This document shows, piece after piece, positions 25,506-44,822 of a stretch of DNA of 64,000 nt (positions are counted from its first letter, which is position 1; every line of letters begins with the position of its first letter). The stretch is from contig JACPUH010000002.1 of assembly GCA_016192345.1 (NCBI GenBank), forward strand, positions 8,875 through 72,874. Reading direction: 5' to 3'. The position numbers and the translations under genes are program-made. The notes beneath the pieces were generated by a model, which was not told where the DNA came from, searched no databases, and saw nothing but the letters and a program-made list of their open reading frames with translations. The DNA comes from Ignavibacteriales bacterium (GTDB taxonomy: Bacteria > Bacteroidota > Ignavibacteria > UBA10030).

Positions 25506-25522
25506 CGCAAGAAGCGTGCCAA
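25506..25522 (-). promoter_or_regulatory. Sigma54 -24/-12 promoter of the Qrc/ACIII-related operon
   Basis: Minus strand TTGGCAC-GCTTC-TTGCG, near-perfect consensus, 38 nt before ATG 25469. Confidence 0.85.
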
Positions 25523-30309: not shown

Positions 30310-31554
30310 TCAAGGCCTGGCGACGTCCTTGGCACGTTGTCTTTGAAGAAAGCGCTCTATCAGTTGTTTATCCGACAACGATGTTTCGATACGGCGCAAA
30401 GCCTCTTGAATGTCTTTACTGGAGGAAACGTATGAGAGCCTGATGTACTCCTGATCTTCATCAAAGGGCCGGTGGCCGAAACACTGCTGCCCGAGCACTG
30501 CAACACCGGCTTCGAGAAGCAAAAATTGCTGCAGATCGCGTGAGCTTGAAAATCCATGGTTGCGGCACGCCTGCGTGACGTTAGGATAAGCGTAAAAGGC
30601 ACCTGCGGGAGTGTGGCATGAAAATCCCTCGATCTTGTTCAGCCCTTCTACAATGAGGTCCCGATTTCCGCGAAACTCCTCAACCATGGCTGTGACGGAA
30701 TCCTGGGAGCCGGTGATGGCCTCCATGGCGGCATGTTGCGTGAACGTCGCCGTGCAGGAATTGGAGTTGGTCATCAAACGGCCGACATGAATCGCCAGCT
30801 CTTTGGGCATGACGCCGTACCCAACCCTCCAACCGGTCATCGCATACGTTTTCGAATGCCCGTCGAGAATAATCGTTCGCTCCTTCATTCCCGGGAATTG
30901 ACTGATGCTCTCCGGTTTGCCCGAATAGAGGATGCGGGAGTAAATTTCATCCGAGAGGACCCAGAAGTCGTGCTTGAGAGAGAGTTCGGCGACTTCATGG
31001 AGATCCCGTTTGGGGATAACTCCGCCAGTGGGGTTATGAGGCGAGTTCATGATGACCATTTTTGTCCGATCGGAAATTTTCGATCGGAGCTCCTTGACGT
31101 CAAAACTGAACTGACGCTCTTCCTGGAGCCGCAACGGAACAGGGGTTCCACCGGCAAAGTTGATCATCGATTCGTAAATCGGGTAACCGGGAACAGGATA
31201 AATCACTTCATCGCCCTCCTCGATGCACGCCAGGATGCTGAAAAAAATGATCGGCTTGCCGCCGGGGACAACGACCACTTCGCTCGGGTGGACGGGGATT
31301 CCCCGTGTTGATGAAACATAGTCGGCGATGATTTGGCGGAACTCTGGAATACCTGACGAAGGGCTGTAATGCGTGAGATCGTTGTCCAGAGCCCTCTTGG
31401 CCGCTTCTTTGATGTTCGGCGCAGTTGCGCAAGCCGGTTCACCAATCGAGAGCGCAATGATGTCCCGCCCTTTCGAGCGGAGTTCATTGACCTCTGCGAG
31501 TACTTCAAACGCGGTTTCAGTGCCGAGACGTGACAAGCGGTTTGCGAGTTTCAT
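30310..31554 (-). CDS. PLP-dependent class I/II aminotransferase (aspartate aminotransferase-like)
   Basis: SIGEP, VVPGGKP, PGYPIY, NSPHNPTG, LSDEIY, DGHSKTYAMTGWRVGY (PLP Lys), YIRLSY. Confidence 0.93.
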   Translation of the reverse strand: MKLANRLSRLGTETAFEVLAEVNELRSKGRDIIALSIGEPACATAPNIKEAAKRALDNDLTHYSPSSGIPEFRQIIADYVSSTRGIPVHPSEVVVVPGGKPIIFFSILACIEEGDEVIYPVPGYPIYESMINFAGGTPVPLRLQEERQFSFDVKELRSKISDRTKMVIMNSPHNPTGGVIPKRDLHEVAELSLKHDFWVLSDEIYSRILYSGKPESISQFPGMKERTIILDGHSKTYAMTGWRVGYGVMPKELAIHVGRLMTNSNSCTATFTQHAAMEAITGSQDSVTAMVEEFRGNRDLIVEGLNKIEGFSCHTPAGAFYAYPNVTQACRNHGFSSSRDLQQFLLLEAGVAVLGQQCFGHRPFDEDQEYIRLSYVSSSKDIQEALRRIETSLSDKQLIERFLQRQRAKDVARP

Positions 31555-31575
31555 GATGTTCTCCTGTCGTGTAGA

Positions 31576-33609
31576 TCAATACTTCATTGCGACAGATCGT
31601 TTTTTGATGGTGATGAGCTCAAGGGCTTTGTGTGCGATATGTTCTGCGCTCACTTCAAATTCCTTCACAAGTTCCCACGGGGCACCGGATTCGCCAAACC
31701 GGTCCTTGACGCCAATCGACCCGGTAATGACAGGAACCTGATACAAGAACGGGGACTCCGTGATGATCCTGCAAACCCTGTCTGCCAGACCTCCGATTTG
31801 ATGTTCCTCGGCTGTCAGAACCACCCCGGTGGCCGCTGCGGCATCCGTAACCGCCTTCTCGTCAAGGGGCTTGAGCGTGTACATGTTGACGATGCGGGTC
31901 TCCAGATCAAAATCTTTTTTCAGGATATAGGCTGCCCGCATCGCTTCCGGGACCATCGGGCCGCAGGCAATAATGGCCAACTGCTCCTCTTCACTTGAAT
32001 ACTCGGAGGCCAGAATCGTTTCGAAGGCATCCACAAATCGCGGTTGTTCGCCTCTGAAGCGTATGACGTTGGCTTTGCCAAACGTGAAGGGAGTCTTCTC
32101 CGTTGTGACGATCGGAGTCGCTTCGCGCGCGAACCGAATAAACTTCGGACCCTGCATGCCAAAGAGAAAATACTCGGTCGCCTTCTTTGTTTCCGTCGTA
32201 TCGCACGGGACCGAGACTTTCATATTGGGTAATCCACAAACCTGGAAGATATCCTCCAGCGCCTGGTGGGTCGCACCATCGGGACCGACGGAGACCCCGC
32301 CATGCGCTCCTGCAATCAAGACGTTCAATTCTCCATAACACACTGTCGTCCGAATCTGATCGAGGCAGCGGCCGGCCGCGAAGGTGCCGTAGCTTCCGAG
32401 AACCGGGATCTTTCCTTCGCGGGCAAGTCCCGCTGCAACACATACCGCGCTTTGTTCGGCAATCCCCACGCTGACCCAGCGGTCTTTTCGCTCAGGGTGC
32501 TTATCATAGAAATCGCTGATCGTAATCGAACCGGAGATGTCAAGACCGAGACAAACGATCCGCTCATCTCCCCCATGCTCCTTCAACGCGTTGCCGAATC
32601 CCTTGCGCGTGGGCTGCATCTCGACCTTCATCAGTTCATCGGTGTTCCACCAGTAATTGCGTTTGAACTTGGGCATCTTCTTTTCCAACTCGGCTTCAGC
32701 TTTCTTCTGATGGGACTTTGCCGAGAGGAGCATTTCATCAACCGGCAGTTGGCCTTTGAGCCCAAGTTGTTCAACGCCCTCATACATTTCTTCCATGCTC
32801 GGGGTTTTGCCATGCCAGCCGGCGACGTTCTCCATGAAGTCGACGCCTTTTCCCTTAACCGTCTCGGCCAGAATCACCACCGGTTTTCCTTTGACCGCCT
32901 GCGCACGATCGTACGCTTTCACAATCTGATCCATCGTGTGCCCGTCTGTCTCTATCACTTCCCATCCAAAGGAACGGTACTTCTCCGCCAGCGGATCGAC
33001 ATCCATCACGTCTTTGACCCAACCATCGATCTGGAGACGGTTTTTGTCGATGATCCCAATGAGGTTGTTGAGTTTATAATGGCCGGCCTCCATCGCGGCT
33101 TCCCAGATTTGGCCTTCCTGCTGCTCTCCATCCCCCATGATGCAATACACCTTGCTGTTCAGTTTCTTCATCTTGAGGCCCAGGGCCATCCCGACAGCGA
33201 TACTGAGTCCTTGACCCAGCGAACCTGTCGACACTTCGACTCCCGGCAGTTTCAACCAATGAGGATGACCCTGAAACAAACTTCCGAATTTGCGCAGCGT
33301 AACGACATCCTTGACATCGAAGAAGCCTGCCATACCAAGTCCCAAGTAGAGGCTCGGCGCCTTGTGCCCAGCCGACCACACGATTCTGTCCCGTCCCTCC
33401 CATGCAGGAACTTCCGGATCCAGTTGAGCTGCATAAAGATACAACGCTGCTGTAAGATCCATGACCGAAAGCGTTCCGCCGGAGTGACCGGAGCCGGCAG
33501 CGGCAAGGCAAATCAGATCATATCCGCGCATCATGCGCGCCGCTTCTTCCAGTTGCGAGACGGTGTAGGTCGTCCGAATCTTACCGGTTTGCGAGTTCAC
33601 GAGGGGCAT
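31576..33609 (-). CDS. tkt: Transketolase (N- and C-terminal subunits of the split type fused)
   Basis: SGHSGGTLS, FQGHP...STGSLGQG, GDGEQQEGQIWEA (ThDP motif), GIAEQ, GPDGATHQ. Confidence 0.9.
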   Translation of the reverse strand: MPLVNSQTGKIRTTYTVSQLEEAARMMRGYDLICLAAAGSGHSGGTLSVMDLTAALYLYAAQLDPEVPAWEGRDRIVWSAGHKAPSLYLGLGMAGFFDVKDVVTLRKFGSLFQGHPHWLKLPGVEVSTGSLGQGLSIAVGMALGLKMKKLNSKVYCIMGDGEQQEGQIWEAAMEAGHYKLNNLIGIIDKNRLQIDGWVKDVMDVDPLAEKYRSFGWEVIETDGHTMDQIVKAYDRAQAVKGKPVVILAETVKGKGVDFMENVAGWHGKTPSMEEMYEGVEQLGLKGQLPVDEMLLSAKSHQKKAEAELEKKMPKFKRNYWWNTDELMKVEMQPTRKGFGNALKEHGGDERIVCLGLDISGSITISDFYDKHPERKDRWVSVGIAEQSAVCVAAGLAREGKIPVLGSYGTFAAGRCLDQIRTTVCYGELNVLIAGAHGGVSVGPDGATHQALEDIFQVCGLPNMKVSVPCDTTETKKATEYFLFGMQGPKFIRFAREATPIVTTEKTPFTFGKANVIRFRGEQPRFVDAFETILASEYSSEEEQLAIIACGPMVPEAMRAAYILKKDFDLETRIVNMYTLKPLDEKAVTDAAAATGVVLTAEEHQIGGLADRVCRIITESPFLYQVPVITGSIGVKDRFGESGAPWELVKEFEVSAEHIAHKALELITIKKRSVAMKY

Positions 33610-33669
33610 GGCGACATCCTTATTCTAATAGCATGCTGCCGTTGGAGAAAGGAGAACCATATCAAACTT

Positions 33670-33686
33670 AGCAATTCGCGTACCAG
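33670..33686 (-). promoter_or_regulatory. Sigma54 -24/-12 promoter upstream of tkt
   Basis: Minus strand CTGGTAC-GCGAA-TTGCT, about 62 nt before ATG 33609. Confidence 0.7.
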
Positions 33687-33816
33687 AAAATGTTCCGTGA
33701 GAAGGAAAAATGGATTGGTAGAGATACACCCACGGCGTAAAATTCCCAGGAATGGGAAGAAAAGCCTCCTATTTCTGCAAATGGGACCAGCGAAAAGAAT
33801 GAGGAGTTTCGAAGTT

Positions 33817-34659
33817 CTAGCGGTATGCAAACACCATGGCGTAGATGATCATGACGATCAACAGGAAGCCGAGGGAGAGTGCAGTCCACGCAAACACCTT
33901 CACGGTTCGAAGGACGATGGGGGGATAAGGATCCGCCATCATATTCTCAAGCTCACCTGATTTCTTGAGCGCCTCATATTCTCTGGGGCGCTCTTCCATG
34001 AACTCCTCCAGCGGGACGCGTCCCGTGAAGATCACGAGATCCATGGGAAACTTTTCCGGACGGAGATGGGTATTGAAAAAATGGACTGTGAAGATAAACC
34101 CCACAGCAAGCAAGGCTTCGTCACTGTGGATAATTGTGGCAACGTTGATGAACCAGCCCGGCATGAACTGAGTGAAGAACTCGGGGAACCAGAGCATGAG
34201 ACCGGTCGATCCGATAATAAACACTCCCCAGAAGACAGCGAAGTAGTCAAACTTTTCCCAATACGTCCAGCGTCCGTATTCCGGTCGAGGTCCGAGATTG
34301 AGAAACCATTTGATGGAGGCGACGAACTCCCGCAGGTCCTGTTTCGTCGGAAGCATCGTGTCGGGTCCCAGGAGCAGTCCCCGCAATGATCCTGCCTCCT
34401 TTCGCTTGCGTATGAGCACGTTGTAGAGGTGTGCAAAAAAGATTCCGAACATAAAGACCGCAGCAATCCGGTGGATATAACCGGCGGATTCATATCCTCC
34501 CAACATTCTTGAAAGGACATTCGCCCAGCCGGTGTAGGAGAATTTCAGGGTCATGCCAGTGAGAGCAAGACTGATAAAACTCACGATCATGACAATATGA
34601 AGCACTCGCTCGAGACGGGAGAACCGCACAACCTGGTGTTCCGATTCCGGACTATGCAT
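33817..34659 (-). CDS. Diheme cytochrome b (FdnI-like fold), CbcL-type membrane domain encoded separately
   Basis: [65 protein letters not shown] match my recollection of the CbcL C-terminal domain. Confidence 0.85.
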
Positions 34660-36646
34660 TGTCGTTCTTCGACTCCTGATTCTTTTTCTCCAACCTTCTC
34701 CGGCGCTCCCGCCTCATTTGCAGGGCTCGCGGGAGCCAGAGGAGAGTGTGGGCGCCGCCGAGAACAAAAGTTCCAATGAGCAGGCCGGTCATTCCCCAGA
34801 ATGTCCAGAAGAGGAACGGATACTTGTCGGGATCGTGATGGGTTGCGTGTGTGAGGTATCCTGCAAAACGGCGCGTGGCACCTGGATGGCATTTTTGACA
34901 CGTTCCGACAACGTTGTCGTGACTCAAATGCGATTGGGGATCGGCAACGGGACGAATGTCGTGAGCTCCGTGACAATCGTAACATTTTGCCGTTTGGGTG
35001 TAGCCGAGCTGCGAGACTTTTCCGTGATAGGTGTCGAAGTACGTGGTGGCAATCTTCTCATGACACTGTCCGCATTTTGTCATGATGTCGAGCTTAAATC
35101 CTGCAATGTCTGTCCGGCGGATGGTGTGTGCAGAATGACAATCGTTGCAGACGGGGAGTTTCTTGTCCGTCTTATGCTTCAAGGTGCTATGGATGCTTTG
35201 CACGAACTGTTCCTGGATCCCGTGATGGCATCGACCACATGTGACTGGTACGTTCTCGGGATTCACGCTTGACGCCGGGTCGGAGATCGGGCGGACATTG
35301 TGCGCAGGATGGCAGTCGCTGCACGTCGCAGTCACGGTGAGACCGCTTTTCAGCAATCCTTTCCCATGGATGCTCTCCGTATAATGGTTGACGATCTCGT
35401 GTTCCGAGCCCGTGTACCGCATGGCTGCTTTCTTCCCTTCCTGGTGGCACTTGCCGCACAGCCGGGGGATGTTCAGGGCAAAGATCGGGGAGCTCGAATC
35501 CGTCCGTCCTTTCACTTCGTGCGTACCGTGGCATTCCTTGCAGGTTGGCCCATTCGGGTCATTGTTGGCGATAAGTTTGCCGTGCATGCTGCCCTGATAT
35601 TGCTGCCCTACTTCCGCGTGACATGACGAACAATCAACTTTCTGCGCAATGGTCTCACACGGACGATGCCTGGACGCGTTGACACCTGCATGGCATTGAC
35701 TGCAGGAGATTTTCTGATGTTTCGAATGAGCCAGCGTATCCGATTGAACCGCCAGGGACCTGCCATCGGCGGAGGACCGAATGGAGAGGTTCGCGTGACA
35801 GCGCATGCAGTCCTGGTCCGCCATTCCCTGATCGTAGAAAACCTTGCGCGCTTTGTGGGGCTGATGACAATCCACACATGCCGGGAGAACGTGTTCTTCT
35901 TTTTCCCACAATGCACCCTTGATGACTTTACGATGAACGTCCTCAATTTGCGCGTGACACACCGTACACGTCGCGGCGATATTTCCCCGCGCGATCGAGG
36001 ATCGGGGATCGGTATGGGGGAGAATGAAGTGCGGTGTATGGCATGAGGCGCAATTGGCCGAGACAACGAGGCCCCGTCTCATGAGACCCTCGGCATGGAT
36101 GCTTTCAGAGTAATTCTCGAGAATATGCGACTGAAGAATGACCCGCTCTCGTTGCACGCGAGTTCCTTCCTGATGGCAGCGTCCACACATAAAGGGAATG
36201 CGGAGGGGCGAAACAGCCGACTCGGCGCTTTTGGTGCGGGCAATCGCGTGGCTGCCGTGACACGATTGGCAATTCGGCGCCAGCGCATCGCCACGGGCAA
36301 CCGCTTTGCCATGGAGACTTTCCTTGTGGAGTTCCTCTTCGGAGGTATGGCACGTGCCGCATACCACCGGCACCACAGGGACCCCATGCGGCATTTCTTT
36401 CCCTTCAAGATCCACGTGGCACGTGACGCACGAAAGATCTGCGTGCACCGACTTCAAAAAGATTGCCTGATCGACAAAAAGCGATACGGGTTTCCCTCGT
36501 CTCTCCGTGGTCAGACTTTTGTCTTCGTGGCACGTGAAGCAGTCGCTGTTATCCTGGCCAAGGGCCACCCCGCCAAGGAGGATAGTCAGGAACAAAGCCA
36601 TGATGGTCCGCCGTCGGATCGCCGGCAGCACGGGAATCGTTTTCAT
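34652..36646 (-). CDS. 19-heme cytochrome c with C-terminal TM helix (expanded CbcL-type heme domain)
   Basis: Signal peptide, 19 CxxCH counted, internal duplication, C-terminal HATHHDPDKYPFLFWTF...GAHTLLW; stop overlaps the cytochrome b start by 8 nt (ATGCATAG). Confidence 0.9.
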   Translation of the reverse strand: MKTIPVLPAIRRRTIMALFLTILLGGVALGQDNSDCFTCHEDKSLTTERRGKPVSLFVDQAIFLKSVHADLSCVTCHVDLEGKEMPHGVPVVPVVCGTCHTSEEELHKESLHGKAVARGDALAPNCQSCHGSHAIARTKSAESAVSPLRIPFMCGRCHQEGTRVQRERVILQSHILENYSESIHAEGLMRRGLVVSANCASCHTPHFILPHTDPRSSIARGNIAATCTVCHAQIEDVHRKVIKGALWEKEEHVLPACVDCHQPHKARKVFYDQGMADQDCMRCHANLSIRSSADGRSLAVQSDTLAHSKHQKISCSQCHAGVNASRHRPCETIAQKVDCSSCHAEVGQQYQGSMHGKLIANNDPNGPTCKECHGTHEVKGRTDSSSPIFALNIPRLCGKCHQEGKKAAMRYTGSEHEIVNHYTESIHGKGLLKSGLTVTATCSDCHPAHNVRPISDPASSVNPENVPVTCGRCHHGIQEQFVQSIHSTLKHKTDKKLPVCNDCHSAHTIRRTDIAGFKLDIMTKCGQCHEKIATTYFDTYHGKVSQLGYTQTAKCYDCHGAHDIRPVADPQSHLSHDNVVGTCQKCHPGATRRFAGYLTHATHHDPDKYPFLFWTFWGMTGLLIGTFVLGGAHTLLWLPRALQMRRERRRRLEKKNQESKNDNA

Positions 36647-38862
36647 GGTGATTGATCGTCTTTACGTCCGGACAAAGCTCTCATCTCTTCCTGTGCCTGT
36701 TCGCTGAGCACCCTTTCCAGTTCCAGCGGATGCTCTTCCTGCATCTCAGCTTCGCTCAGTGTTCCTGTCCAGAAAGCAAGATTGATGGGGTAGGTATCCG
36801 GATTGAACATGACGTAATAGAAGTGCCACACAATGATTGCCAGCGTGGCGAGCCAGGCTTCATAAAAATGGATCAAACGGGCAACGTCGTATCCGAGCTT
36901 GGTCAGAAGCCCGATGAAGGTGTTGTCGAACCACATGATGAATCCCGTGACCCCCATGACAATCGTTCCCCACACGAGCGCCCAGTACTCGCTCTTTTCG
37001 ATATAGCTGAATCGACCGAACCTCGGCTTTTCATTCGTGATCCACAGGTTGTATCGAAGGACATCGCGCGCGTCCACGAGATCCTGGAACCTTGGCATGA
37101 GATCGCGAATCAGTTCTTTTCCCCGGGGAATGAACAAGATATAATACGTATGGTAGAGGGCTGCAAGAACCATGACGACGGCTGCCACCCTATGGACAAG
37201 ACCCCGAAGGTCGAAGGCTGCGTCGCTGAGATTCCGGATCGAGACTACCCACCATGCATCAGGATAGCGTAGCATGAACCCCGTGATCACCAGAGTTACA
37301 AAGCTCACAACGAGTGACCCGTGCTGAAGGCGTTCGCTCAGGCTCATGCGCAGGTACAAATGATGTCCCACATGTTCTTCGTGGATCACGCCACGCCGAA
37401 CCAGCAGTTTCCTGCGCGCCTTCCTGATGAAATCCAGCGCATTGTGGAACACCATGCCGCCGATGGTCGACAGGATCAGCATGAGGTAGAGCGTTGCTAC
37501 CCAATACAGCAAGGGGTCGTTTTCACTGTTCGTAATATCCACATGCACGGACCCGATTGCGAATCGTTCATTGGCCCCCCTGTGACATTTCCCGCATGTT
37601 TCCGCAAGATTGTTTTTGTTCGTCGGGGAGGCAGGATCCGCGGACGGCTTGATGCTGTGAACACCGTGACAGCTTGTGCAATTGGCCACTTCGATCGATC
37701 CACCGCGGATCGCCAGGCCGTGATAACTGTCCGTAAATGTCGCGAAACGGTCCGATGCAATGCCGTACTTCTGAGTCAGCTTCACGGAACTATGGCAGGG
37801 AGAACAGACCTGCGCGCTCACATTCTTTGCGGCAATCGGTGACGCCGGGTCGGTATGAGCGAGAATGTTGTGCTCGCCATGACAATTGGTGCAAACGGGC
37901 GATTCCAAGTTTCCCAAACCCGATGCGATGCCATGGACGCTTTCATTGAATTCTTTCGTGATTTCCGCGTGGCACTTTGCGCATGTGCCGGGAATATTGA
38001 ACTTATAGACTTTCGATTCAGGGTCATTGCCCTTACGCATTTGGTGGCTGCCGTGGCAATCGACGCAGTTCGCTGCCTGGGCATTGCCCGATTGCAGTGC
38101 CGATCCGTGAACGCTGTGTTCATACGCGGCGATAAACCCGGCGGAGGGGGCAACGCGGGCCCGCACACTCTCATCGTCGAGATGGCACGAGAGGCAGAAT
38201 TTCTCCTGGGCGGTTTTCACCTGGACCGAATCCCTCCCGGGCCGAATCTTGGTAAGGTCATTCCGATGACATGTAATGCAGATGGGAGCACCCAGGATGC
38301 CCGCTTGGAGGGCTTGGCCATGTGCGGACTCGAGAAAAGTCTTTCGTTCCGTGAGGTGGCACGTACCGCAGAAATCCGGCTGCTTTGCACGAGATGTGCG
38401 TGCCGCGGGACTCCCTGGCGAAACCACATCATGAGTCCCATGGCAACTTTTGCAGGAGACGTCGGGGGTGCCGTCGTGCCCTGTTGCTCTCGCCATCTGA
38501 GGATGGAACGCGTGCTTGGAAGGAGCGTCGCGATGACACGTCTTACAGTTGACCGGCGTGATCGTTTCCTTGTGGGGAACATTTTCGGCGTCGAATCCAA
38601 CGTGGCAGGCCACGCAAACGAGTTTGCCGTGGGGAGATTTTCTGAGGACGGCTTCGTCGGCGTGAAGAGAGACTTCCCTCCCATTCCGTTCCATGGTGAG
38701 TGAAGGCTCACTGTGGCATGCGAGGCAATCCGCCCTTGTCTGTGCAAAGAGGGAACCACCCGGGGCAGAAAGGACGACCAGGAAAAGGTACGACAGAACA
38801 GATCCCCGTCGCTGATGAGACCTGGAGAGAATTCGTTTGAGAAGTATGAACGCTACAAACAC
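36643..38862 (-). CDS. 13-heme cytochrome c fused to a cytochrome b domain (Cbc-family quinol:cytochrome c module)
   Basis: 13 CxxCH followed by ERLQHGSL, LVHRVAA, RFSYIEKSEYWALVWG, IHFYEAWLATLAIIVWHFY; start uncertain (GTG 38862 with AAAGG preferred over TTG 38922); ATGA overlap with the next gene. Confidence 0.88.
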   Translation of the reverse strand: MFVAFILLKRILSRSHQRRGSVLSYLFLVVLSAPGGSLFAQTRADCLACHSEPSLTMERNGREVSLHADEAVLRKSPHGKLVCVACHVGFDAENVPHKETITPVNCKTCHRDAPSKHAFHPQMARATGHDGTPDVSCKSCHGTHDVVSPGSPAARTSRAKQPDFCGTCHLTERKTFLESAHGQALQAGILGAPICITCHRNDLTKIRPGRDSVQVKTAQEKFCLSCHLDDESVRARVAPSAGFIAAYEHSVHGSALQSGNAQAANCVDCHGSHQMRKGNDPESKVYKFNIPGTCAKCHAEITKEFNESVHGIASGLGNLESPVCTNCHGEHNILAHTDPASPIAAKNVSAQVCSPCHSSVKLTQKYGIASDRFATFTDSYHGLAIRGGSIEVANCTSCHGVHSIKPSADPASPTNKNNLAETCGKCHRGANERFAIGSVHVDITNSENDPLLYWVATLYLMLILSTIGGMVFHNALDFIRKARRKLLVRRGVIHEEHVGHHLYLRMSLSERLQHGSLVVSFVTLVITGFMLRYPDAWWVVSIRNLSDAAFDLRGLVHRVAAVVMVLAALYHTYYILFIPRGKELIRDLMPRFQDLVDARDVLRYNLWITNEKPRFGRFSYIEKSEYWALVWGTIVMGVTGFIMWFDNTFIGLLTKLGYDVARLIHFYEAWLATLAIIVWHFYYVMFNPDTYPINLAFWTGTLSEAEMQEEHPLELERVLSEQAQEEMRALSGRKDDQSP

Positions 38863-39009
38863 GGGGCAAACCTTTTCGTGAGAGTCGCTGTGAAGGTCAG
38901 CGACATCGACAGTGATATTCAAGTACGACCGACCTTCTCATCCCGGAGATATTGGTTGATCTTTGCACACCATACATCGTCCAAGGCCAACAGCGGGCTT
39001 GTTAAAACA

Positions 39010-39064
39010 ACCAAGCAGCTCCAACACATCGGGTCGCCTCGGTAGTGTCGAGGAGCTGCTTGGT
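39010..39064. other. Long stem-loop in the leader of the cbc-type operon
   Basis: Perfect 13-bp ACCAAGCAGCTCC/GGAGCTGCTTGGT plus inner ACAC/GTGT pairing; no U-tract. Confidence 0.55.
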
Positions 39065-39202
39065 AACAATCGTGCATCGTTGAAGCATCCAAAGGCTCGA
39101 CGATCGGGTTATTTTGAATGCATCGATTCCCGCCACTGCGTCAGGGTCTCAAGCTCCTCCACTGAACCCTCGAGGAACCCGGTTCTCCACGGTGTTCTGG
39201 AA

Positions 39203-39304
39203 CTACATCCCCACCGCGCCTGCGGTCGAAAACGCGATCAGCGTAAGGACTAACACCGTCAGGGCCAAGACGCACCCAGACAACCACATTCGTCGTTCGT
39301 TCAT
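39203..39304 (-). CDS. Putative 33-aa single-TM small protein (below ORF-track cutoff)
   Basis: MNERRMWLSGCVLALTVLVLTLIAFSTAGAVGM*; GAGG RBS about 7 nt upstream; directly after a sigma54-type element. Confidence 0.4.
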   Translation of the reverse strand: MNERRMWLSGCVLALTVLVLTLIAFSTAGAVGM

Positions 39305-39365
39305 CGAAAACCTCGTTCCATCGTTTGTCCACCGGGGTATTGAATACCTCAACACTTTACCCTGT

Positions 39366-39381
39366 GACAACCTCCGTGCCA
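39366..39381 (-). promoter_or_regulatory. Candidate sigma54 promoter for the sORF and cbc-type operon
   Basis: Minus strand TGGCAC-GGAGG-TTGTC, about 63 nt before ATG 39304. Confidence 0.6.
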
Positions 39382-39471
39382 CGACGCGTGTTGGCTTTAC
39401 AGGGAAATAAATGCTGAGGAATTCAACAAGGGGTTCCCAAAGCCGGGAAATCTCGTGTCACCTTCCAACGG

Positions 39472-40431
39472 CTAAGAATGTGGCCCCAAGGATGCATCAT
39501 GATGCACCTCCGGGCCTTTGAGGAGGGATGTGCCAAATGGTTTGACGGTGAATACGGGAACTCGGGAAAATCTTACAATCTTCTCTGCTACGCTCCCCAG
39601 AAGCAAATGCTCGATGCCCGTTAAACCGTGGGTGGCGATCACAATCAGGTCCGAAGCATGGCTCTCGGCAAACTTGACGATATCCCGGGCCGCGCGCCCT
39701 TCACGAATATGGATCTCGGCCTGCACCTCCGGCCCCCCCGACTCCATCAGCATCCGCTCAATTTCCCGGACGGAAGTGGTCTCGATCTCCGGCATGAACT
39801 CAAAAACCGAGCTGCGCCCCGTGGCATACAAGGCGGGATGCAATTGTTCCTCGACGATATGCAGGACTTGAAGTTCGGCCCCGTACAATATCGCGAGTTC
39901 CTTTGCATACCGCACCGCCTGCTCCGAGTGTTTCGAAAAATCGACCGGGACAAGGATCTTGCGAAACACACCGGCCCTGTGGGGTTCCATCGTCTCCCGA
40001 ATCGTAAAGACGGGGCATGAGGCAAATCGCACGATTTCCTCCGCAACGCTCCCCAGGAACAAGTGTCCTATTCCTCTTCGACCATGGGTTCCCATGACAA
40101 TCAGCTCGACCTCATGCTCGCGGGCATAGTCGATGATCACCGGTCCGATGGAGATATCCCGAACGACGTTCTGCGTGATGCGAAGCGTTTGCGCCTGCTG
40201 CTGTTCCAAAACCTGCAGCATCGGTGGTGTCAGGACGGTTGCTCCAGGCCTGACCTCCGGTGCAGCGGGGACCACCGTCAACAGGCTGGTGTGGTCCTCG
40301 TACGGAACGTACACGCGAAGAACATGCAATTCCGCACTGTGCCGCTTTGCTAATTGTACCGCCTGGACGAATGCCTGGTTAGCACAGCGGGAAAAATCTG
40401 TCGGAAAAAGAATTCTCTGGATCGTGATCAT
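39472..40431 (-). CDS. Tandem-domain universal stress protein
   Basis: ILFPTDFS...IVMGTHGRRG...LGSVAEEIVR..CPV, then ILVPVDFS...IATHG...LGSVAEKIVR; start at ATG 40431. Confidence 0.95.
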   Translation of the reverse strand: MITIQRILFPTDFSRCANQAFVQAVQLAKRHSAELHVLRVYVPYEDHTSLLTVVPAAPEVRPGATVLTPPMLQVLEQQQAQTLRITQNVVRDISIGPVIIDYAREHEVELIVMGTHGRRGIGHLFLGSVAEEIVRFASCPVFTIRETMEPHRAGVFRKILVPVDFSKHSEQAVRYAKELAILYGAELQVLHIVEEQLHPALYATGRSSVFEFMPEIETTSVREIERMLMESGGPEVQAEIHIREGRAARDIVKFAESHASDLIVIATHGLTGIEHLLLGSVAEKIVRFSRVPVFTVKPFGTSLLKGPEVHHDASLGPHS

Positions 40432-42612: not shown

Positions 42613-44091
42613 TCAATAGGATTTCATTGTTCCTTGGCGCTCCTCGGCCTGCTTCTTCCAGCGAGGGAGGACGGTCTGAAAAAACTCTTCTTTTTGCAGG
42701 GTGAGTTTCTTCATGTCCAATCCGATATAGGCCTGGGCTTTCGACTTTGTGGAAATATCGGGAAGAGGGAGTGGTTCCGTGATACCCCTCTTGGCAAGGA
42801 CACGGGCAAGATGAAGCCTCGCCTGCTCGGCTTTTTGAATAGAGGAACCGAGTACACGGGCAGCTTCCACCGGTGAATGGAATCCGAGTCCGTTGGAAGC
42901 CGCCACCCAATCCCACCGCCATTGGGCATGACGAATCAACTGCAAGGCCGGTTTCATTTCCTGTTCTGTCGCCCCCTTGTCCCATACGGCCTTGGCTTCG
43001 ATGTGTGCCCGGACAATGGCATCCTCAGCCCGCATCCTTAACTCCAGAATTTTTCCCTGCCGGTCATTGACGCTTTTGGTCAGTGTGGCTTCGCTCTCGC
43101 GGTGGCAGACCTGGCATGACCCGGCAATATCATTGAGGGGGCTTTGGATCTTGTGATTGGTGAACTTGACACCTCCCTCATTCCGGTACGGCATATGGCA
43201 ATCGGCGCAGGAGATGCCCCGCTCGGCATGAATGCCGGTTTTGAAGAGTTCATAGTCGGGGTGCTGCGCCTTGAGCATCGGCGCACGGCTGAGAGCGTGA
43301 ACCCAATCGACGTGTTGAACGGAATCGAAATAAACCTCCATGCTGTCCGCACTGAATCCTTTATCCCAGGGAAATGTGAGATACTTCTCCTCTTTGCCCT
43401 TGAAATAATACTCCACATGACATTGGGCGCAGACATAGGAGCGCATCTCCTGAAGCGTTGCTTTCCGGATATCGACCCCCTGCCGCTGCATCGCCTCGAC
43501 CAGCGCCGGACGCGTCACCCGCAGGTTCATCGTCTCAGGATCATGGCAATCCTGGCAGCCGATGTTGTTCACCACCTGGGAGCCGAGACTATCCCAACTC
43601 CCTTTATAGAATTCGGCCGGCCCCATCTCCGCCATCAGGCGCGGGACGTCGGTGCTCTTGCAGGTCCAGCAGGTTGCAGGTTGAGCGACCCCGGTCCGAA
43701 GCGTGGTCCGAATGTCCTCGATGGCGTAGTAATGCCCGCGGGCCTGTTCATACTCCCGTGAGAAAGCGTACCCGGCCCACAGGATCACAAGGTTGGGATC
43801 CTCGGCAAGATAATCGCGCCAGGAGCCTCCGGCGTACATGCTCCGGAACGAAGTATCGAGCGTGCTTCTATACGATTCGAACTCCCGCGGAAAATTTTCA
43901 CCCCACACCTCGTTTCGCGGCTCCCATGTCGCAATCGGCTTCACAAGCTGGAAAGCAAGCCGCGCTTCCTGGCGGCGCTCCATGATGGATGCGCCGAAAA
44001 GCCCAACAAGGAAAACGACGACTACCGTACCGATAAAAAGGGCCCACGCAACCCAGGGGTTTTCCTGAATAAGATCGACGACGCGTTTCAT
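42613..44091 (-). CDS. nrfA: Ammonia-forming cytochrome c nitrite reductase
   Basis: Catalytic CWTCK, CQDCH, CAQCHVEYYF, KAQHPDYE, CADCHMP, CQVCH, WRWDW...GFH; N-terminal TM. Confidence 0.97.
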   Translation of the reverse strand: MKRVVDLIQENPWVAWALFIGTVVVVFLVGLFGASIMERRQEARLAFQLVKPIATWEPRNEVWGENFPREFESYRSTLDTSFRSMYAGGSWRDYLAEDPNLVILWAGYAFSREYEQARGHYYAIEDIRTTLRTGVAQPATCWTCKSTDVPRLMAEMGPAEFYKGSWDSLGSQVVNNIGCQDCHDPETMNLRVTRPALVEAMQRQGVDIRKATLQEMRSYVCAQCHVEYYFKGKEEKYLTFPWDKGFSADSMEVYFDSVQHVDWVHALSRAPMLKAQHPDYELFKTGIHAERGISCADCHMPYRNEGGVKFTNHKIQSPLNDIAGSCQVCHRESEATLTKSVNDRQGKILELRMRAEDAIVRAHIEAKAVWDKGATEQEMKPALQLIRHAQWRWDWVAASNGLGFHSPVEAARVLGSSIQKAEQARLHLARVLAKRGITEPLPLPDISTKSKAQAYIGLDMKKLTLQKEEFFQTVLPRWKKQAEERQGTMKSY

Positions 44092-44104
44092 AAGATCCCT
44101 TTGT

Positions 44105-44743
44105 TTATTTGGAACGTGATAACCTGGCTTCTATCCAGGGGGGAAGAACGGGCGAGAGCCGGGGGACCCGGGCGTACGGTACAGAAGCAAGGCTGTTGAC
44201 ACGGCCATGCGGCGTTTCGCGATGGCATTCCCAGCACAATTTCCCGGCGCCATGGCCGGCATTCTCACCGGTCACCTCCACCAGGGAACCCTGATTCACC
44301 AGGTTGGCATGACAGCGAATACAGTTTTCCTGGAGGACGGTGATCCCGGCCTCCTTCACATGGATCACCTGCGGCTCAAGCCGGAAGGTAAACATGAACG
44401 AGTGACGCAACCCATCGTTTGCCTTGAAGGCGAACTTGCGGATCACATTATTCTGAGGAACATGGCAATCATTGCAAACGGTAAAACGGCCATGACTCCC
44501 CCGCTGCCACGTGGCATATTGCGGCGCCATGACGTGACAATTCATACATGCTGCCGGTTCATCGGACAAATATGAGGCTGCATTGGAGGTGTGAAGGATC
44601 ACCAGGCCCAATCCGCACAGGACTCCCACGACCAGGAGTACGGGGAGTTTCCATTGTTCAGGGGGGACCAGGAGGTCGAGGAGCTTTAATAAGTGCCGGC
44701 CAACAAAACGGAGAAATTTCAACATTGATCGTTTGAATGCCAT
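44105..44743 (-). CDS. nrfH: NrfH tetraheme quinol dehydrogenase/anchor
   Basis: SYLSDEPAACMNCHVM, CNDCH.P, K..DG.RH, QENCIRCH, CWECHRETPHG; start uncertain (44725, 44743 or 44800). Confidence 0.95.
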   Translation of the reverse strand: MAFKRSMLKFLRFVGRHLLKLLDLLVPPEQWKLPVLLVVGVLCGLGLVILHTSNAASYLSDEPAACMNCHVMAPQYATWQRGSHGRFTVCNDCHVPQNNVIRKFAFKANDGLRHSFMFTFRLEPQVIHVKEAGITVLQENCIRCHANLVNQGSLVEVTGENAGHGAGKLCWECHRETPHGRVNSLASVPYARVPRLSPVLPPWIEARLSRSK

Positions 44744-44822
44744 GAATGCCGTTCCGACCGGAGGAGCGACCCGACATCTCTGTGGGCGCGGTCGGTCCAT
44801 TCCGACGAAAACAATCTAAATT

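Follow-up and report, generated by a model that had tools for sequence, protein, structure and literature searches.

Is a CbcL-type cytochrome, known from Geobacter as a single polypeptide, encoded elsewhere by two separate genes, and was its haem domain enlarged when the gene was cut? Both questions are raised by a 64,000-nucleotide stretch of an Ignavibacteriales genome (assembly GCA_016192345.1, contig JACPUH010000002.1; hereafter the window), in which a gene for a 19-haem cytochrome c (gene B) is followed by an overlapping gene for a cytochrome b (gene C). CbcL is a membrane cytochrome thought to move respiratory electrons out of the quinone pool. Cytochromes of this type are among the few known electron routes from the quinone pool to minerals or electrodes and, to our knowledge, have been studied in Geobacter only. 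The first-pass annotation of the window had left open a choice between true fission with translational coupling and a single frameshift or assembly error in a fused gene. We report that the split of the CbcL-type gene into B and C is real and old, and that the 19-haem layout, as judged from haem spacing, is older than the split. B and C are probably two subunits of a CbcL-family inner-membrane quinol:cytochrome c oxidoreductase, separated by an old fission between membrane helices 1 and 2.

The two genes and the neighbouring gene A lie head to tail on the minus strand:

33817–34659, minus strand: gene C, a 280-amino-acid (aa) FdnI/HydC-type dihaem cytochrome b corresponding to CbcL helices 2–6
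34652–34659, minus strand: B/C overlap of 8 nucleotides (nt), ATGCATAG, read from the sequence; it holds the start of C and the stop of B and lies in the cytoplasmic linker
34652–36646, minus strand: gene B, encoding a periplasmic cytochrome c of 664 aa that has 19 haems, a signal peptide at the N-terminus and a membrane anchor at the C-terminus

The split and its alternatives

The coordinates and motifs quoted in the first-pass annotation are exact, including the HTLLW helix at the end of B and the length of the overlap with C. One changed base in the linker would be enough to merge the reading frames of B and C; the cellular gene could be fused and appear split only through a frameshift, sequencing or assembly error. 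In the close homologue P0148 (locus L006) the gene is in fact fused, and the +1 frame of its linker contains a TTGA at which start and stop overlap, so that one indel can switch between the fused and split states. Against an artefact, however, the contigs of four groundwater runs from one study are identical and free of indels over positions 34500–34800 (word depths 36, 8.7, 25, and 2.8); the source sample may itself be one of these four.

The split state is also shared by most homologues. A search with C returned more than 100 distinct stand-alone b proteins of 278–300 aa (70–98% identity), and 119 of the 120 best homologues of B are 642–707 aa long. Independent metagenome-assembled genomes (MAGs) carry the complete trio, i.e., a fused gene of 689–717 aa, a 19-haem gene of 659–674 aa, and a b gene of 285–298 aa, and their B/C junctions are each different (ATGA, ATGCCTGA or GTGA). 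Among 151 genomes drawn evenly from the same class, 26 other than that of the window carry an orthologue of C at a cut-off of at least 55% identity; 24 of these orthologues are in the split state, and the two fused ones, G079 and G132, are both from family f3.

The junctions could be parsed for 19 split loci. They include overlaps of 1, 4, 8, 11, 14, and 20 nt and gaps of 1, 2, 3, 16, 27, 52, and 57 nt. Each of the three frame relations is represented, and TGA, TAG, and TAA all serve as stop codons. Such variety is what would be seen in two long-separate, tightly coupled genes, each pair with its own stop/start arrangement, and is unlike an error or a recoding site. Given the run contigs, the split state of the orthologues and these varied junctions, the probability of an artefactual origin is close to nil, and it was rejected for practical purposes. 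Of the two options offered initially, the real fission of tightly coupled genes has thus been upheld, and the frameshift or assembly error is refuted.

A second way to obtain a fused product would be programmed recoding, by frameshift or stop read-through, yielding some B-C polypeptide beside the separate products. B and C are indeed in the same frame with one stop between them at five of the 19 junctions (G063, G136, G009, G114, and G098); at these loci (L096, L097, L100, L104, and L114) the single stop is TGA in four cases and TAG in one, and the two frames are 1–19 codons apart. This frequency, however, does not exceed the one-third expected by chance and is therefore not taken as a sign of programmed read-through. 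A conserved slippery sequence is absent from the junctions, their lengths range from −20 to +57 nt, and the start codon of C is particular to every locus. Recoding is hence highly improbable.

The 19-haem cytochrome and the age of its layout

By motif count over the translated open reading frame, B contains exactly 19 CXXCH motifs and no variant motifs. Its Pfam matches are to the Cytochrome_C7, c3, and NrfB-like families. The following features were delineated within the gene:

36554–36646, minus strand: predicted Sec signal peptide (MKTIPVLPAIRRRTIMALFLTILLGGVALG/Q), from sequence reading and a hydropathy peak at residues 14–32
35843–36550, minus strand: 8-haem repeat unit 1 (B residues 33–268, haems 1–8), from self-alignment with unit 2
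35114–35818, minus strand: 8-haem repeat unit 2 (B residues 277–511, haems 9–16), from self-alignment with unit 1
34847–35113, minus strand: membrane-proximal three-haem segment (haems 17–19), from motif count and self-alignment
34724–34825, minus strand: C-terminal membrane helix, KYPFLFWTFWGMTGLLIGTFVLGGAHTLLWLPRA (residues 608–641), from hydropathy and alignment with CbcL helix 1; carries His633 (HTLLW)

The signal peptide would be cleaved between its last residue and the following Q. The terminal helix is the sole C-terminal hydrophobic helix and is followed by a basic tail.

The internal duplication of the haem region that had been noticed at first reading is confirmed by a composition-adjusted self-alignment, in which residues 33–269 match residues 277–512 with 34% identity and three gaps (E 5e-51, 155 bits); the best score in 200 shuffled-sequence controls was 28.9 bits. 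The haem spacing (37, 23, 30, 28, 45, 28, 30; 23; 35, 24, 30, 28, 45, 28, 30; 25, 30, 28) repeats accordingly, and B thus consists of two 8-haem units and a three-haem segment beside the membrane. This segment shows similarity to a portion of the repeat (36% identity with unit 2, E 7e-22). B orthologues have a haem spacing identical to that of B.

The only solved structure resembling the haem domains of A, B, and the Geobacter-type CbcL is PDB 28pb chain A (278 aa, annotated "Cytochrome c"), with E-values of 6e-3, 1.4e-5, and 3e-6, respectively. A weak match to 6r2q chain A was obtained for B alone (E 8.5e-5).

The expansion of the haem domain had initially been tied to the split, and this part of the proposal did not survive the comparison with fused relatives. 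The CbcL/MtrH/MtoC family has been catalogued in 15 phyla, with 3–23 CXXCH motifs, lengths of 416–1034 aa and mostly six helices (Zhong & Shi 2018, PMC6295460). Two Ignavibacteria entries in Table S2 of that survey, OGU58019.1 (952 aa) and OGV21847.1 (944 aa), each have six helices and 19 motifs. From their motif positions we derived a spacing nearly as in B (…37, 23, 30, 28, 45, 28, 30, 23…). These proteins bear the same class name as the host of the window, but are fused single polypeptides, whereas the gene in the window is cut after helix 1. Fused proteins with 19 motifs and almost the same spacing also occur in other lineages, namely P0243 (957 aa, from a Hydrogenedentota MAG), P0244 (914 aa), and P0245 (932 aa). 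As the spacing recurs in fused proteins of other lineages as well as of Ignavibacteria, the long wire predates the cut, and the haem expansion is not tied to it.

Relation to Geobacter CbcL

Published CbcL is one polypeptide with nine c-haems, six membrane helices, a periplasmic domain at residues 30–279 and suppressor sites at V205 and F525; the first-pass description of the G. sulfurreducens protein as a single nine-haem polypeptide agrees with these papers. To find its counterparts, a PpcA probe was used solely to reach four Geobacter-type genomes (Geobacter hydrogenophilus, G. argillaceus, Pelotalea chapellei, and a Desulfuromonadales MAG), in which CbcL was then identified by its published features. 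In each of the four, C matches one place only, with 45–48% identity over residues 2–276 (E ≤ 0.01), and so the b subunit does group with CbcL, as first suggested. The matched proteins are 617–619 aa long, and their nine CXXCH motifs fall within residues 35–262. The one at locus L085 (619 aa) has V205 and F525, the latter within GFIFTVH. Since the nine haems and both suppressor sites fit the published numbering, the matched proteins are CbcL. Its similarity to the three genes of the window is as follows:

CbcL and C: 45.9% identity, 279 aa, E 5e-86 (CbcL residues 335–612)
CbcL and B: 30.6% identity, B residues 272–642, E 9e-43
CbcL and A: 28% identity, 597 aa, E 1e-62

CbcL is nearer to C than to A, and hence the split pair, rather than its fused neighbour, is the closer CbcL relative. 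The part of B aligning with the Geobacter-type haem domain comprises unit 2 and the last three haems, and the 19 haems, compared with nine in CbcL, result from the duplication of the 8-haem unit.

The anchor helix of B (KYPFLFWTFWGMTGLLIGTFVLGGAHTLLW) is 56–59% identical to helix 1 of the four Geobacter-type CbcL proteins (KFPILYYTFIAMTGLLISTFAVFWIHTLLW), with HTLLW kept. It is thus conserved as strongly as the b domain and far above the haem domain (about 30%). The gene is cut in the loop that joins helices 1 and 2 on the cytoplasmic side. Five histidines have been put forward as candidate haem ligands of CbcL, one each in helices 1–3 and two in helix 5 (Joshi et al.). All five are invariant: His633 in B and His21, His63, His178, and His193 in C. 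His633, in the HTLLW motif, is found in 15 of 15 aligned rows, the A type included.

In overall architecture, CbcL (GSU0274, known from G. sulfurreducens and other Geobacteraceae) and the B/C pair share the signal peptide, the multihaem c domain, helix 1 with HTLLW, the cytoplasmic linker and the five-helix FdnI-like b domain. The CbcL motif GFIFTVHFF, which holds F525, is conserved in C. In contrast to CbcL, with its one polypeptide and nine c-haems, B/C is composed of two polypeptides with 19 c-haems, and its host belongs to another phylum. NCBIfam has no CbcL-specific model and gave only sub-threshold matches to the formate dehydrogenase gamma and DmsE-type decahaem families.

Two cluster representatives, P0259 and P0300, group with the Geobacter CbcL proteins in the b-domain tree but lack a haem-c domain; in its stead they carry N-terminal cytoplasmic repeats of the type LGEILVEAGLISKTTLMRALERQ, T2SSE_N/MshEN-like in look. 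By their sequences, these proteins might join a CbcL-type cytochrome b to a possible signalling domain.

Gene C and the proposed electron transfer

C contains no haem-c motif and passes the Pfam threshold for PF01292 Ni_hydr_CYTB (38.7 bits, cut-off 30.1). The only solved structure related to it in sequence is FdnI of E. coli (1KQF chain C, E 1.8e-4). In the 1KQF chain C alignment, the four C histidines, invariant in our alignment, fall on the RACH, ILHPFF, LIHAAA, and LIHMY positions, whose histidines we take to be the four haem ligands of FdnI. With all four positions present, C is a complete dihaem cytochrome b alone. Alignment with CbcL assigns one membrane helix to B and five to C, six in total; hydropathy recovers all of these but one, which is in C.

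In the proposed mechanism, B would be exported by Sec and loaded with 19 c-haems, and its helix would dock on C, much as the FdnH anchor lies beside FdnI. Menaquinol would be oxidised at the quinone site of C, and the electrons would pass through the two b-haems to the 19-haem chain and then to periplasmic or outer-membrane cytochromes, although the reverse direction would also be possible. The B-C complex, its partners and the direction in which the electrons move are inferences. That B and C belong to one unit is favoured by the fused forms with the same 19-haem spacing inside and outside the split clade (G079, G132, P0148, and P0243–P0245).

Alternatively, B may not be a partner of C at all, but an independent tethered haem wire, fed for instance by A, with C acting alone or with some other protein. 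An A-type gene adjoins B/C at about 24 of the 26 orthologous loci, which would suit such a wire, as would the fact that all four FdnI-type haem ligands are within C. On the other hand, the helix of B is homologous to helix 1 of fused CbcL and is conserved like the b domain, fused B-C forms exist both in relatives and in outgroups, and B and C keep both their adjacency and their order in family f18, where A is displaced to the downstream side. We consider an independent B improbable.

The direction of flow is a separate matter. The module could work in reverse, with electrons from outside (Fe(II) or a cathode) passing along the 19-haem chain to menaquinone, as proposed for MtoC. Members of the family occur among Fe(III) reducers as well as Fe(II) oxidisers (MtoC), with no sequence feature telling the two apart (Zhong & Shi 2018, PMC6295460), and this leaves room for reverse flow; at the same time, no sequence feature speaks in its favour. 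We consider reverse operation rather unlikely.

Several observations weigh against B and C as a two-subunit quinol:cytochrome c oxidoreductase. Their physical association is deduced solely from homology to the fused proteins. Given the occurrence of the family in organisms of both kinds, the flow direction is not readable from the sequence. C alone holds all four canonical FdnI ligands, to which His633 of B adds a fifth conserved histidine. None of the RNA runs searched for the stretch contains it. Finally, an AlphaFold2 model of the naturally fused homologue P0148, built on an alignment of 111 B and C orthologues, is of low confidence (mean predicted local distance difference test score, pLDDT, 63; predicted template modelling score, pTM, 0.39), with the haem domain mostly below 70. 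This model, although poor overall, has six long helices in its membrane part, and a fold search with it found FdnI only, for the b part (best match 1KQF_C, probability 0.99, target TM-score 0.53).

A bolder extension of the two-subunit interpretation, in which B would be an anchored wire that crosses most of the periplasm and docks directly on an outer-membrane porin-cytochrome conduit, is in our opinion unlikely. If it were true, a soluble shuttle cytochrome would be unnecessary. A separate B could be made, matured and exchanged independently of the b subunits, and might serve both C and A.

The cut separates helix 1 precisely from the FdnI-like core of four helices. Separate expression and study of the haem wire and of the quinone-binding b subunit is naturally possible with the split form, which also allows a test of the fifth conserved histidine, that of helix 1.

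Fused relatives and evolution of the split form

Zhong & Shi 2018 (PMC6295460) describe the members of the family as single polypeptides only. The B/C pair has its 19 CXXCH motifs within the family range of 3–23, six helices, and a HydC/FdnI-like b domain with conserved histidines; the identity of C to the CbcL b domain (45–48%) is within the family range of 28.6–100%. The role ascribed to the family, which B/C may share, is to oxidise menaquinol and so supply extracellular electron transfer at low potential. The c and b parts, which in the family are on one polypeptide, are in two genes here. As the split is kept in 24 of 26 orthologues, B/C is a split derivative rather than a canonical family member: a variant of a known family and not a new kind of system, with the 19-haem form already catalogued in the fused state. 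No paper describing the split form was found in the literature, and the Melioribacter roseus multi-omics paper does not discuss the module.

A profile-free search of 1.84 billion cluster representatives yielded 2,480 relatives of C. The nearest ones outside its own cluster are mostly c-b fusion proteins with 5–22 CXXCH motifs. In trees of the b domain, fused proteins surround the split clade, which itself has three fused members, the pair G079 and G132, and P0148. At least four changes of state are needed on the tree, and well-supported branches compel two or more of them.

A second split group is family f18. Two of its members, at loci L111 (G107) and L113 (G125), have 23 CXXCH motifs in the B-type frame. 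At these two loci the A-type gene lies downstream of B-C. A more distant lineage, P0297, 41% identical to C and found on 23 contigs, is also split. In the P0297 locus (L121, 2635–4876), the b gene is preceded, with an 8-nt overlap, by a gene for a multihaem cytochrome of 457 aa; downstream are an ImcH-like gene and two Usp genes. Taken together, the trees and these groups show that both fission and fusion at this loop have occurred repeatedly.

The nearest CbcL relative in Ignavibacteria-type groundwater bacteria would normally be a two-subunit enzyme. The split form is widespread in the class, and surveys that seek c-b fusion proteins will miss it; its recognition is useful for annotation and for biochemistry.

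Comparison with other known systems

The nearest precedent for the split form is the CbcBA system of G. sulfurreducens (GSU0593-0594), in which the dihaem cytochrome b is likewise a protein of its own and works with a multihaem cytochrome c whose C-terminal anchor helix bears a conserved histidine. Nevertheless, CbcA has seven haems compared with 19 in B, and CbcB has four helices and three histidines, whereas C has five helices and four aligned ligand histidines. CbcB is of another b-type lineage, reportedly without sequence homology to the CbcL b domain, and fused versions of CbcBA occur in Chloroflexi (Joshi et al.). Orthology of C to CbcBA was considered and rejected, since in the four Geobacter-type genomes only the CbcL gene was matched at E-values up to 0.01. 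The separate c subunit with its histidine-bearing anchor is a resemblance to CbcBA in architecture only. CbcBA is encoded in a sigma-54-dependent operon with a BccR-like regulator.

Formate dehydrogenase-N of E. coli (FdnH/FdnI, 1KQF) has a b subunit like C, with the ligand positions aligned as described above. In its structure, the periplasmic electron-transfer subunit FdnH is reportedly held by one C-terminal helix beside the four-helix FdnI. Unlike FdnH, which is an iron-sulfur subunit working with a catalytic subunit, the periplasmic partner in our module is a multihaem cytochrome. The similarity of C to FdnI is remote (19% identity in the fold alignment), and C has an extra sixth helix.

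Gene A and the genomic neighbourhood

Upstream of B lies a c-b fusion gene:

36643–38922, minus strand: gene A, 759 aa from TTG; a fused paralogue with 13 CXXCH motifs, helix 1 and a four-helix PF01292 cytochrome b, without helix 6

A overlaps B by ATGA and is just 31–33% identical to C. An A-type gene adjoins B/C mostly on the upstream side, and on the downstream side in family f18. The start codon of A is uncertain, with TTG at 38922 and GTG at 38862 (both on the minus strand) as candidates. From TTG, the first haem motif is at residue 66, compared with residues 29–32 in orthologues, and GTG gives A a more normal signal peptide.

Genes for a Usp protein, a TonB-C protein and NrfHA are found upstream of A in the window, in place of the PAS kinase and sigma-54 response regulator present upstream in the relatives L001, L004, and L006; Usp is upstream in relatives as well. 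The nrfHA pair (42613–44800, minus strand), located upstream of the Usp and TonB-C genes, encodes a cytochrome c552 nitrite reductase (E 2e-176) and its NapC/NirT-type partner. On the other side, C is followed in the window by transketolase and aminotransferase genes (30310–33609, minus strand). Cytochrome genes come directly after C in L001, L004, and L006, and the closest relative, L002, also has a transketolase.

A sigma-54-like, near-consensus promoter motif, TGGCACGGAGGTTGT, is located between the Usp gene and A (39367–39381, minus strand). The pattern TGGCAC-N5-TTG[CT] has two matches in the whole window, the second being at 25521 (minus strand). No motif of this type was found upstream of A in L001, L002, L004, or L006, and a promoter and terminator scan of positions 33500–39500 gave nothing above chance expectation.

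Two c-b modules are also found side by side in the Hydrogenedentota MAG that encodes P0243. There (L120, 4283–9874), the fused 19-haem gene is divergent from a second c-b fusion gene of 663 aa, with a sigma-54 activator encoded near the two. The pairing of CbcL-type modules thus reaches beyond the class Ignavibacteria and, given also the A-type neighbours of most B/C orthologues, the two modules are an old pair.

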